Counted from the stretch's first letter, positions 35,908 through 63,713 are shown. The stretch is DNA of 64,000 nucleotides from Clostridiales bacterium (GCA_021199275.1 JAJQIJ010000037.1:14154-78153), one strand, 5' to 3'. Made by a program: numbers and translations. Notes: generated from the letters alone by a model not told the origin.

Positions 35908-36047
35908 TTCAATAAGGGCTTGCCCGTTATTCAACGTGGCAAGCGACAGCAATGCTGCCGCTCCCAGCGGGAGCTTGCATTCACCGCTGATTAAAAATCG
36001 GACAGAGCCGCCTGTAGAGGCGTGGACATTTCTTGCTTAAGTTATAT
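35908..36047 (-). repeat. Full copy (B) of the ~138-bp palindromic repeat
   Basis: Plus strand TTCAATAAGGGCTTGCCCGTTATTCAACG...CACCGCTGATTAAAAATCGG...GCCGCCTGTAGAGGCG...TAAGTTATA, collinear with C, D and E. Confidence 0.92.
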
Positions 36048-36125
36048 TCGCCTTGCTTAGAAAATATGCCCGGTGCGGTTTTTGCAATTTAAGGCAGGTT
36101 TCAGCTTTGACACGGCATTTGAAAA

Positions 36126-36944
36126 TCAGACTGCAAGCGCATAAAGCTCTGCCGCCGAAAGCGAGTCCTGCAAACACACATTTACCGCCATGCCCAGCAG
36201 CTTTGCGCCCTGCTGGGTCAATCTGTCTATTTCACGCGGCGTTACAAACATGTCTTCGCTGCCGTTTACAACGCTGCCGGCCGAAATCACGGTGGGAATT
36301 CCCATGGCAATAACCGGAATGCCAAGGGTTTTCTTTGAAATTTCAAACCTGTGGTTTCCCACGCCGGAGCCCGGCGAAATGCCCGCGTCTGAAAGCTGCA
36401 CGGTTGTGCCGAGCCTTTCAGGCGAGCCTGAAGCAAGGGCGTCTATTACAATAAGGCATGCGGGTTTTATTATGTCTGCCACGCCCTTTATTATTTCAGC
36501 GCTTTCAACGCCCGTGTTGCCAAGCACGCCTGTTTGAATTGCAGACACGGTTTTCAAATTTTCAAAGCCCATTTGCTTTCTTAGCTGCGCCGAAATATGC
36601 CTTGTTGCAAAAACATATGAGCTTGCTTTCGGCCCCAGCGAATCTGCGGTTATGGCGCTGTTGCCCAGCCCCGCCACAAGCACATTGCCGCAATTTTCAG
36701 GCAATACTGACTTTAAAACCGCAGCCACCATGTTGAGCCGGCTGCCCAAAATGTCTGCGTCGTTTGCAAAAGAGCCGACGTCAACGGTGATATACCGCCC
36801 GCACGGCTTGCCGATTTTTTTCTCTCCGTTTTTATTGAGCACCAGCACTGTGGTAATATTGTCTTTCACCTGAACCTTTACGCCGTTTATTTCGGTTTTG
36901 TCTTTTTCTTCAAAGCATTCAACTGCCAAATCTGTTCTTTTTAT
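36126..36944 (-). CDS. gpr: Germination protease GPR (start uncertain; possible ATA start)
   Basis: RTDLAVE, GLGN...TADSLGP, VIDALA, GISPGSGVGN, VIAMGIPTV, VTPREID. Confidence 0.9.
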   Translation of the reverse strand: MKRTDLAVECFEEKDKTEINGVKVQVKDNITTVLVLNKNGEKKIGKPCGRYITVDVGSFANDADILGSRLNMVAAVLKSVLPENCGNVLVAGLGNSAITADSLGPKASSYVFATRHISAQLRKQMGFENLKTVSAIQTGVLGNTGVESAEIIKGVADIIKPACLIVIDALASGSPERLGTTVQLSDAGISPGSGVGNHRFEISKKTLGIPVIAMGIPTVISAGSVVNGSEDMFVTPREIDRLTQQGAKLLGMAVNVCLQDSLSAAELYALAV

Positions 36945-37154
36945 AAAACCACCCCATGTCGCCACGCCGGCTTTTTTAGTTACAATTTTGAATGCGAAGC
37001 CCGCCTGAATTTGCATTGCGGGTGCAAATATCGCCGCCGCTGCGGTGTCTCTGCTTAAAAGTATGTCCAAAAAATAAAAAAACTCTTGCAATTTATTTTT
37101 ATGTATGATAATATACATAGGCATTGAAATAATTTCAACCAAGGGAGTGATAAA

Positions 37155-37412
37155 ATGCCTCAGATAAAATCAGCTAAAAAACGAGTTAAGGTTGAAGCTA
37201 AAAAAGCCGCTAACAATAAAGCTGCTAACACTGCGCTTAAAACAGCTATAAAGAAAGCTAACACGGCCATTGCCGAAAATGCGCCTGACAAAGAGGAAGC
37301 TGTAAAGCTTGCGGTTAAAAAGATTGACAAGGCCGCTTCAAGCAATCTCATTCACAAAAACAACGCGGCAAGAAAAAAGAGCAACCTTGTGTCAAAGCTC
37401 AACAAGTCATAA
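37155..37412 (+). CDS. rpsT: 30S ribosomal protein S20
   Basis: MPQIKSAKKRV...IHKNNAARKKS; divergent from gpr as usual in Firmicutes. Confidence 0.96.
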   Translation: MPQIKSAKKRVKVEAKKAANNKAANTALKTAIKKANTAIAENAPDKEEAVKLAVKKIDKAASSNLIHKNNAARKKSNLVSKLNKS

Positions 37413-37439
37413 CTTGAATTCACCTTAAACAATATGCAC

Positions 37440-37464
37440 GCTCTGCCGATTCAGGCAGGGCTTT
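37440..37464 (+). terminator. rpsT terminator
   Basis: GCTCTGCC-GATTCA-GGCAGGGC-TTT. Confidence 0.65.
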
Positions 37465-37660
37465 ATTGTTTTGAAATTCAATAGCGTTTAAAAAGACGCC
37501 GCGCCGTGTAAAGCGCATGGCTCACCTTTTTTCTTGGGCGGGGCATAATTTCGGCTTTTCGCTTCGCCTCTCTGGCAGCAGTGCCGCGGTCTTTCTAAGC
37601 GGGCGCTTCAGGCCCTTGAGCCTAAATTATTAACGAAAACAAAACAAATTTTCGTTGTTC

Positions 37661-37689
37661 TTGACTTTAATCTGCAACGTGGTTATAAT
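37661..37689 (+). promoter_or_regulatory. sigmaA promoter
   Basis: TTGACT-17nt-TATAAT upstream of ORF 37732. Confidence 0.75.
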
Positions 37690-61566: not shown

Positions 61567-61574
61567 CCAAAGCA

Positions 61575-61606
61575 AAAAGCCGGCAAAAACGCCGGCTTTT
61601 ATTTTT
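61575..61606. terminator. Terminator after the GH38 gene
   Basis: AAAAGCCGGC-AAAAAC-GCCGGCTTTT plus T-rich tail. Confidence 0.8.
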
Positions 61607-61626
61607 ATTTTGCGTCATAGGTATTT

Positions 61627-61764
61627 TTCAATAAAGCTTACCCGTTATTCAACGTGGGGGCGGCAGCCGCTGCCGCGCCCAGCGGGGAATTGTATGCACC
61701 GCTGATTAAAAATTGCACCCCGCCGCCTGTAGAGACGGCGGGCATTTCCCCCCCTAAGTTATAA
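61627..61764 (-). repeat. Full copy (D) of the ~138-bp palindromic repeat
   Basis: Plus strand TTCAATAAAGCTTACCCGTTATTCAACGTGGGGGCGGCAGCCGCTGCCGC...GCCGCCTGTAGAGACGGC...CCCCTAAGTTATAA. Confidence 0.92.
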
Positions 61765-61793
61765 TTGTAAACGATTATTAAAATTGTAACTGC

Positions 61794-63566
61794 TCATCTT
61801 ATCAAATCAATTATATTAAATTTTAAAAACTTATTCGTTGGGAAAAAAGTGACAATAAAGACATACAGAGATATAAGCAAGCCAACAACTACAATCCAAA
61901 CCGGATTGAAAAAGATGATAAAATTCCAGCCAATATTGATAACAACTGCAACTATAAAATAAAACAGCGCTGCGCAAAAATATGAAACAAATATTTGTAA
62001 TAATTTTTCTAAAAAAATTATTTTCATTATTTCGTTCTTTGATATTCCAAAAATTTGCAAATACCCAAATTCACGTTTTCTAAAAAACAAATCAAGTTTA
62101 ATTTCGTTAGTAACAAAAATCATAGACAGAATTATTATAACAAATATAGCTAACAATGAAATCGCAACTATTGAATTAATAATTGACTGTACATTTAACA
62201 TTGCCGAATCCCAAGGTGAAATTGAACCCCCAAAATATTCTCTTAATTCTTTATATGCCGATGTATTATAAAGGTTATCACATGCGACCATTAACATATC
62301 ACTTGATTCTATATTTCCAAATTCCTTTAGACTATCGTAAGGAACATATACTGATTCTGTGTTTTCAGATAAACGGTAATAATCAAAATAGTAAACAAGA
62401 TTATATAATTCAGAATCTGTCAAATCATTAAGAATCCCCGAAATTGTAAAATGATAATTATTAATTATAATTTCTTTTCCAACACAATCTTTATAATTTG
62501 AAACACTAAAATTGTTATTTATAAATTCTTGATTTACAATAACTTCATTTTGCTCTTTAGGAAATGTTCCGTAAGCTAACACCCCGGGACAACTAAAGCC
62601 GCTATATTTTGCATCAGTAAGAATATAACAAGTAAAATTATCTTGTTTAAATTGATAATTTTCAAATATTTTTAAGTCATATGTATCTTTATATTCTTCA
62701 TAACCATATTCACTGATTGTAAAAGTATTCATTGGATAATTTGCATATACTCTATCTATTAAAATGTTTTGAATATTTTGCTGCAATCCAATACAAAGTA
62801 AAATTAGAAATAGCATAAATGATAACAATATATTTCTGCTAAAATTTGAAAATTTATTTTTTCTTAATACATATTTAAAGAGTTTACGGCGCTGCTCATT
62901 TTCTTCATTATGGACTAAATGATTAATTGTTTTTTTACTGTTCTTAATTTCTATATTAGATATATTTCCATAATCCAAATGAATTATTACATTTGCAATG
63001 TTATCAAAGCAATCCTCATGAGTAGAAATAATAATTATATTGTTATTCGTTGATATCTTGGCAAATATTTTTGCAAGCTTTATGGAATTATCATTATCTA
63101 ATGAAGCAGAAGGTTCATCTGCTAATATCAACTGAGGATTTGAAAGCAAAGCCCTTACAATAGAAACTCTTGACCTTTCACCACCAGAAAGTTCATTCGG
63201 ATATTTTTTTAGTAAATTATCTATATCTAACTGCTGAGAATAATTATGTATAAGAGTAATATCATTTTTAATGAATAAAAGATTATCCATTACCGTCATA
63301 TTAGAAATAAGTAAGCTATTCTGAAAAATATAACCAATCTTATCTCTGACGACACTTTTATCTGTTATTTGTTGAACATTATCCCAAACATATTTACCCA
63401 AGTAATCACTATCTATCAAACCAAGAATATTCAGCAATGTAGTTTTGCCACAGCCGCTAACGCCCTTAATTAGATAGATTTTTCCATACTCAAAGTTAAA
63501 GTTTATATTATTAAGAATTGTGCGATCATATTCTTTTGTTATATTTTCTAATTTAATCATCATCAC
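61794..63566 (-). CDS. AT-rich ABC transporter ATPase-permease fusion (MacB/FtsX-like)
   Basis: GVSGCGKT, LSGGE, LADEPS, H-switch, then TM helix, soluble loop and FtsX-like C-terminal TMs with RKREFG. Confidence 0.9.
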   Translation of the reverse strand: MMMIKLENITKEYDRTILNNINFNFEYGKIYLIKGVSGCGKTTLLNILGLIDSDYLGKYVWDNVQQITDKSVVRDKIGYIFQNSLLISNMTVMDNLLFIKNDITLIHNYSQQLDIDNLLKKYPNELSGGERSRVSIVRALLSNPQLILADEPSASLDNDNSIKLAKIFAKISTNNNIIIISTHEDCFDNIANVIIHLDYGNISNIEIKNSKKTINHLVHNEENEQRRKLFKYVLRKNKFSNFSRNILLSFMLFLILLCIGLQQNIQNILIDRVYANYPMNTFTISEYGYEEYKDTYDLKIFENYQFKQDNFTCYILTDAKYSGFSCPGVLAYGTFPKEQNEVIVNQEFINNNFSVSNYKDCVGKEIIINNYHFTISGILNDLTDSELYNLVYYFDYYRLSENTESVYVPYDSLKEFGNIESSDMLMVACDNLYNTSAYKELREYFGGSISPWDSAMLNVQSIINSIVAISLLAIFVIIILSMIFVTNEIKLDLFFRKREFGYLQIFGISKNEIMKIIFLEKLLQIFVSYFCAALFYFIVAVVINIGWNFIIFFNPVWIVVVGLLISLYVFIVTFFPTNKFLKFNIIDLIR

Positions 63567-63574
63567 ACCTTCTT

Positions 63575-63713
63575 TTCAATAAGGGCTTGCCCGTTATTCA
63601 ACGTTGGGGCGACAGCCGCTGCCGCCCCCCTATTGGGAGATTGTACTCACCGCTCTTTCAAAATCGGAAAGAGCCGCCTGTAGAGGCGGGGACATTCCCC
63701 CCCTAAGTTATAA
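63575..63713 (-). repeat. Full copy (E) of the ~138-bp palindromic repeat
   Basis: Plus strand TTCAATAAGGGCTTGCCCGTTATTCAACG...GCCGCCTGTAGAGGCGG...CCCCTAAGTTATAA; direct repeat of D. Confidence 0.92.

Follow-up and report, generated by a model that had tools for sequence, protein, structure and literature searches.

Insertion sequences of the IS200/IS605 group, which move by single-strand 'peel-and-paste', and their gene-less derivatives (PATEs) enter DNA directly 3' of a host motif of four or five fixed nucleotides, which is not duplicated, carry a target-like end and lack inverted ends, and they are further marked by subterminal hairpins, strand specificity and end-to-start tandem copies (PMC3201880, PMC10055086). 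In IS608, the left hairpin lies 19 nt from the left junction and the target is TTAC (PMC3201880). Here we describe a gene-less intergenic repeat of about 134 nt from a Clostridiales bacterium (GCA_021199275.1), an uncultured Ruminococcus, found in a 64,000-nt stretch of DNA (the window) that corresponds to positions 14154-78153 of contig C29 in a 1.86-Mb metagenome-assembled genome (MAG) of 40 contigs and 98.7% completeness. The repeat has exact boundaries, a defined target, no terminal inverted repeats (TIRs) or target-site duplications (TSDs), a covarying structure and lineage-specific insertions. On balance, we lean towards regarding it as a mobile element of the PATE kind, derived from an IS200/IS605-type element.

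The mobile unit is CTTAGG...CCCTTATTGAA, with CTTAGGCAAGATGT and hairpin 1 on one side and ...GGGCAAGCCCTTATTGAA on the other, and lies immediately 3' of (T)ATAA. In flank tables of 72 copies from this genome, the conserved block runs from ATAAC to TTATTGAA, and the base before the conserved ATAA is T or A in 68 of the 72. Neither these copies nor 35 copies from the related genome G161 (CAZTXS01) show direct or inverted repeats at their ends, in agreement with an earlier reading of the window from its sequence alone (the sequence-only reading), which had seen no clear TIR or TSD. Even behind an ATAG, copies end in GAA, and the terminal AA is therefore not a duplication. ATAA precedes 106 of 141 copies in this genome and 33 of 35 in G161, mostly with T or A at position -1 (in G161 mostly as TATAA).

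While the sequence-only reading had placed ATAA within the element, stop codons, orthologue ends and dimers show it to be the host target and CTTAGG to be the start of the mobile unit. In 26 copies, the TAA or TAG of ATAAC ends an upstream open reading frame (ORF) of 80 codons or more, compared to 8 and 4 for the two remaining frames, and the ORFs ended in this way are housekeeping genes (a glnS-type tRNA ligase, pyrG, galK, argH and others); in G161, the flanking motif serves as a stop codon in 7 of 35 copies (other frames, 1 and 1). The galK orthologues of four congeners end in ...GGT(R/K)VM plus stop, the same as galK here, whose junction reads GTTATG^TAA^CTTGGGG (^ marking the borders). 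The G of this GTAAC copy thus belongs to a host Met codon, followed by the host stop, and the element begins at the next base. pyrG ends in ...K plus stop in 11 congeners (AAATAA in six of them) and reads AAAAAA^TAA^CTTAG here, and the ends of argH orthologues are likewise consistent with a host-owned TAA. In head-to-tail dimers, present both here and in G161, the copies are joined as TTATTGAA^CTTAGG and the second has no ATAA of its own; the junction TGAA^CTTAGG indicates that the second copy takes the TGAA end of the first as its target. ATAA stop codons make up 7% of the available ATAA sites but 18% of the insertions, a 2.6-fold excess, and ATAA sites are equally common on both strands.

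Between species, the element shows six helices with compensatory changes (57 copies from at least eight genomes), and the hairpin layout given by the sequence-only reading proved correct when the copies were read. Hairpin 1, in which one C is bulged, begins 14-16 nt inside the left junction, the middle hairpin is in two parts with a conserved ATACAAT loop, the stem of hairpin 4 is wholly different in sequence between species, the 3' terminal hairpin covaries, and the two internal hairpins are exchangeable. A long-range stem (GGCAAG/CTTGCC or GGGGG/CCCCC) closes the structure, with the 5' AAC and the 3' GTTGAAT set off from its GGCAAG/CTTGCC form by an unpaired 3x3 spacer. The earlier hint of this stem holds between species, where helix 1 is 89% paired with double changes in 6 of 6 pairs, and less so within the genome, where 29 matching combinations of 5' and 3' types face 11 mismatching ones. 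In the covariance-model alignment, 93% of cells pair, versus 38-54% when the partners are slid, double-sided changes occur in 34 of 47 pairs, and none of 500 shuffles reaches the observed values. The structure was drawn by hand on G161 copies to build covariance model R1, whose alignment of the 57 copies yielded model R2; an alignment fitted to the model favours the structure, but the stem swaps between species are nonetheless plain in the raw MAFFT alignment. RNAalifold on MAFFT alignments returned 0 or only 3 pairs, since indels misalign the stems. G-U pairs outnumber A-C pairs by 119 to 71, which identifies the top strand, ATAAC...TTGAA, as the folding strand.

Variants of the unit occur as well. 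Through indels, copies range from 129 to 145 nt in length. In G161, short variants of ~108-112 nt without one internal hairpin module are common, and the last 23 nt of the element (TRACGGGCAAGCCCTTATTGAA) are sometimes tandemly duplicated past the right end (L024 143-309, L025 514-680 and L029 6798-6964). A consensus ATG (in AAGATGTCC / AAATGTCC) opens a frame across most of the element, e.g., at 63575-63690 on the minus strand of the window, which in the G161 consensus stops at the TAA of GTTGAATAA; because copy lengths vary by indels, we doubt that it is coding.

A hidden Markov model (HMM) of the repeat, built from the copies and run with nhmmer (E<0.01), has 204 matches in the genome, including 85 of full length (median 138 nt), 43 5'-only and 38 3'-only matches. 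Altogether, the repeat accounts for 20.6 kb, or 1.1% of the genome, and solitary 3' modules are present too. Only 4 of 133 long copies lie inside crude ORF calls. The abundance and the intergenic position surmised from the window extend to the whole genome, and co-directional, convergent and divergent gaps are occupied in proportion to their length. When 5'-only and 3'-only matches within 8 kb of each other were paired, no autonomous copy emerged in this genome.

Run over the relatives, the models detect the family in 15 of 145 congeneric species, with 1 to at least 49 copies each; BLAST with a single copy finds almost no match in congeners, and the HMM and covariance model are needed. Exact-word matches in public genomes reveal close carriers among 'uncultured Ruminococcus sp.' MAGs. 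G161 carries at least 150 copies, 90% identical, in 1.7 Mb, while those in the genome of the window are 74% identical on average, with few pairs above 90%. Here, paired columns have diverged by 0.149 and unpaired ones by 0.154, and rare variants are not depleted in stems; with stems and loops equally diverged, there is no sign of selection on the structure of individual copies after insertion, and the compensatory changes date from the time when the lineages were active. At 74% identity the copies are old, and the family in this genome is best read as an old, decaying burst. A comparison of empty and filled sites, as the sequence-only reading had proposed for defining the ends and target, could be made between species: five syntenic sites filled in other species are empty here, one site shows the reverse, and no insertion site is common to different species. 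These are the marks of a mobile element with lineage-specific bursts and not, in appearance, of a conserved host RNA. A metagenome scan yielded 11 short loci and a viral scan one, with no Y1 gene among them. The viral-contig locus, L174 2633-2662 (IMGVR_UViG_3300028374_000012), matches the 3' hairpin module alone (HMM positions 113-142), exactly over 18 nt, and may be a solitary module or chance.

The likeness to PATEs and IS608 is considerable: there are no TIRs or TSDs, a short host motif stands 5' of and outside the element, the right end, TGAA, resembles the target, the hairpins are subterminal, one strand folds, head-to-tail copies join end to start, and the left hairpin sits 14-16 nt in (IS608, 19 nt). 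Just 5' of the foot of hairpin 1 stands a nearly invariant ATGT, which, under the guide/cleavage pairing rule of IS608 that reportedly goes back to the co-crystal work of Barabas in 2008, would predict a target A-T-x-A and would suit ATAA at this end; by chance, a match of this kind is expected in a few percent of cases. The target itself differs, being (T)ATAA here and TTAC in IS608; that of ISDra2 is TTGAT. An element of this kind would be inserted top-strand specifically, directly 3' of the host (T)ATAA and without target duplication, and its hairpins (the left one, that at the right end, the two internal ones and the long-range stem) may be handles for the mobilising enzyme. We infer single-strand chemistry by an HUH enzyme supplied in trans, whose gene would no longer be in the assembly, having been lost or not assembled.

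Several observations weigh against this reading. At the right end, a guide match (CRTT versus TGAA) is obtained only with a 1-nt offset and a different spacing, cleavage falls 0-8 nt from the hairpin foot, unlike the geometry of IS608, and the hairpin is unlike hairpin 1. Searches for a Y1 transposase (PF01797), including tblastn with IS200-type proteins and with proteins of the type associated with repetitive extragenic palindromes (RAYTs), found none in the assembly, although the incompleteness of the MAG leaves some room. The one IS200-type gene of G161, which has at least 150 young copies, is a pseudogene interrupted by a stop. Of 144 genomes of the genus, 38 have IS200-type TnpA and 61 have RAYT-like genes; among the 14 genomes that bear the repeat, each of the two is present in just 4, and Y1 genes are thus not associated with it. 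Most genus IS200 copies sit at T-rich sites, end in ...GGTTATGATT and have other end hairpins.

The orientation of the copies belongs among these points. In co-directional gaps, 60 copies have the same orientation as the genes and 15 the opposite (80% sense, p=1.6e-7), extending to the whole genome the co-orientation first noticed in the window. Divided by replication strand, the ratio is 27:5 with leading-strand genes and 4:2 with lagging-strand genes, and convergent and divergent gaps give 12:9 with respect to replication, i.e., random; the numbers are low, and calling skew on the contigs of a MAG is only approximate. Orientation thus follows gene direction and not replication, whereas IS608 and ISDra2 show a lagging-strand-template bias, and may reflect selection or transcription-linked targeting.

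Of the PATE/HUH assignment made in the sequence-only reading, the placement exactly 3' of a host (T)ATAA without TIR or TSD stands, while the HUH enzyme, itself an inferred part, has no counterpart in the assembly. Since the defining enzyme was not found, the repeat counts as a candidate PATE, but the claim that it works like one is strengthened. The absence of a cognate transposase, first noted for the window, extends to the whole assembly, which has no Y1 or RAYT gene, and the relatives have no cognate Y1 TnpA with matching ends. Readings based on TnpB and its omega RNA, a reverse transcriptase, DDE enzymes (rve, DDE_Tnp_1), IS110 or a serine recombinase were rejected, as their genes are absent from this assembly; a search for IS91-type Y2 enzymes gave no match and is uninformative, since the control also matched no genome.

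The IS200-type elements of the genus are rejected as parents, since their ends and targets differ. Their right ends span ~150 nt with three to four GC-rich hairpins and comprise at least four end types (L079 135-730, L080 1240-1900 and L102, from congeners G163, G161 and G014). Three of the copies are preceded by TTGTATAA or TTGTATAG, the same as the target motif of the repeat. TATAA stands before the G161 pseudogene and two related copies (TTGTATAR), where it may be target or part of the element; the copy in G163 interrupts a P-loop ATPase gene just past the Walker A motif. The similarity of CTTTAGGCAG to IS200 involves a small IS200 hairpin and is probably due to chance, and the right-end hairpin GGGCTTTGCCC of the G161 pseudogene bears only a loose resemblance to the 3' module. 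In congener G160, a RAYT-like Y1 gene (HIHLLI ... WQRSYYDHIIR; L081 1402-1941) lies between the genes for pyruvate formate-lyase and its activating enzyme; its homologues in the 61 congeners reach up to 13 copies per genome, many with in-frame stops.

No Rfam family matches the repeat at the gathering threshold, and copies D and E of the window give nothing beyond noise at E<10. This agrees with the earlier statement that no matching described family was recognised, and neither a catalogued Rfam family nor a scarcity of copies outside the window, which would have spoken against that statement, was found. The family is nevertheless a familiar kind of selfish DNA and no new class of element. Integron attC sites, including the VCR of Vibrio, are 60-140 nt long, lie right after ORFs, act as one folded strand and recombine at G^TT within AAC...GTT boxes. 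The repeat resembles them in length, in its same-orientation position after ORFs, in a single-strand fold whose structure is kept while the sequence varies, and in an AAC...GTT pair with long-range stem and spacer. One could therefore imagine that it is moved by other machinery, be it a tyrosine recombinase acting on the folded single strand in the style of attC or the CTX phage, or a class of enzyme so far not connected with repeats of this sort, which might insert it into the exposed non-template strand in a transcription-coupled way. Lacking genes for Y1, TnpB, DDE, IS110, serine recombinase and reverse transcriptase enzymes, the assembly yet encodes three generic Xer-like tyrosine recombinases, and this reading would accommodate the missing association with Y1 genes, the AAC and GTTGAAT that resemble attC R and L boxes beyond the 3x3 spacer, the dissimilar terminal hairpins, the sense-strand bias that tracks transcription and the excess of stop codons among the targets. 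Against it stand the junctions, which are TAA^C and GAA^ and not within GTT, the best integron-integrase score of 73 bits, compared to a cut-off of 265, the dispersal of copies after pyrG, galK, argH, glnS and other housekeeping genes on all contigs without any cassette array, and the target-adjacent motif without duplication, a classic HUH signature. We reject the attC reading itself on these junctions, scores and dispersed copies, and consider other machinery as a whole unlikely. Its variant in which a non-Y1 enzyme inserts the top strand into the transcription-exposed non-template strand strikes us as distinctly improbable, though it would explain the absence of Y1 genes from the richest carriers, the gene-following bias and the 2.6-fold TAA excess.

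The repeat could also be a structured RNA module useful to the host, stabilising or punctuating mRNAs in the way of repetitive extragenic palindromic (REP), BOX or ERIC sequences, with mobility secondary. REP units are 20-40-nt palindromes with a conserved GTAG head that flank a single RAYT gene (PMC8266576). Like them and their mosaic assemblies (BIMEs), the repeat is high-copy, intergenic and modular, has GC-rich hairpins and solitary modules, and often lies just after genes; it differs in being an ordered 134-nt composite whose ends and flanking motif are fixed, in a genome without RAYT and in a genus whose RAYT-like genes do not co-occur with it. The REP-like label of the sequence-only reading is therefore dropped, and with it a REP/BIME origin. 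A host function would agree with the sense orientation of 80% of copies in co-directional gaps, with the excess of G-U over A-C pairs on the sense strand, with the covarying helices and with copies that, within operons, separate a stop codon from the following ribosome-binding site (RBS), such as copy E. We nonetheless regard it as quite unlikely, given that stems are no better kept than loops within the genome, that no insertion site is common to species, that 130 of 145 congeners lack the family, that Rfam has no match and that no consensus promoter or terminator is found in the copies. The size of ~135 nt and the intergenic spread would also suit a classical DDE-type miniature inverted-repeat transposable element (MITE). 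BOX, RUP, ERIC, Correia and bcr sequences, which are transcribed, share with the repeat a structured and modular build, an intergenic position, a size of 100-200 nt, copy numbers in the hundreds and a restriction to a species or genus. RUP, Correia and bcr1 (of Bacillus cereus) end in inverted repeats and duplicate their target (TA or TTTAT), and BOX and ERIC have no defined target motif, whereas the repeat has a defined target but neither inverted ends nor duplication, and as far as Rfam shows shares no sequence with them. PATEs often encode omega RNAs (PMC10055086), and a PATE carrying a TnpB omega RNA guide belongs to the same consideration. The analysis of ends and flanks already contradicts both the MITE and the omega-RNA idea, for which the TIRs, the TSDs, the rve and DDE_Tnp_1 genes and, in this genome and five other carriers, the TnpB zinc-ribbon domain are lacking, and we hold them to be highly improbable.

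Within the window, the four full copies and four fragments listed by the sequence-only reading all exist, and were found at the noted places by direct reading, HMM and covariance model (Table 1); copy C is the most diverged of the full ones. Copy D lies in a convergent gap, 30 nt past the stop of ORF 61794-63566 and adjoining the terminator of ORF 58372-61566, and copy E lies between two AT-rich genes, with the RBS and start of the next gene 8 nt beyond its 3' end.

Table 1. Copies and fragments of the repeat in the window (positions counted from its first nucleotide).
Feature	Position	Strand	Target ATAA	Span with ATAA	Remarks	Found by
Copy B, mobile unit	35908..36041	-	36042-36045	35908-36045	GCAAG/CTTGC subtype; 84.7 bits	direct reading, HMM, covariance model
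Copy C, mobile unit	38115..38246	+	38111-38114	38111-38246	48 bits vs model R1	
Copy D, mobile unit	61627..61758	-	61759-61762	61627-61762		direct reading, HMM, covariance model
Copy E, mobile unit	63575..63707	-		63575-63711	CTTAGG...TTATTGAA	direct reading, HMM, covariance model
Copy E, target ATAA	63708..63711	-			TAA 63708-63710 is the stop codon of upstream ORF 63708-63998	
5' half copy	1623..1700	+			ATAA, then CTTAGGGG and hairpin 1; remainder diverged	HMM, covariance model
Decayed solitary 3' terminal hairpin module	8592..8616	+			ATAATAACGAGCAGTCCCTTATTGAA; under HMM threshold	by eye
5' end fragment	46962..46986	-			ATAACTTAGGGGAAATCCCCACGC; under HMM threshold	by eye
Solitary 3' terminal module	55393..55432	+			..ATTACGGGCAAGCCCTTATTTAA	HMM

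The AT-rich pair occupies 61794-63998 at the contig end and consists of a 590-aa ORF and an ORF cut by the end of the window, with 26% and 19% G+C compared to 46% for the window; copies D and E bracket and separate the two. No neighbouring homologues of the pair were found in congeners at the DNA level. These ABC-type genes look horizontally acquired, and copy E, with 54% G+C within a foreign pair of 19-26%, looks to have entered later, behind the stop codon and ahead of the next RBS. In the window, Rfam matches only a T-box leader (54364-54601, minus strand, 130 bits) and a tRNA gene (18635-18707, plus strand).

About 1% of this genome consists of the repeat, and in a related genome its share is probably several percent. 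Of the 80 contig ends in this assembly, 8 have a copy within 300 nt, exact matches in public assemblies are often at contig ends, and contigs of one sample break at the repeat, which suggests that it fragments assemblies; since it also sits within operons, right after stop codons, it matters for the annotation and assembly of gut and rumen Ruminococcus MAGs. Were the repeat moved by an enzyme that is not a Y1 transposase, the interest of the family would rise considerably, and insertion into the transcription-exposed strand, if true, would mean that a bacterial repeat spreads in a manner coupled to transcription and next to stop codons. With its defined target, exact boundaries, exchangeable hairpin modules and both young and old bursts, the family is a natural data set that can be used for studying how gene-less single-strand elements are recognised.

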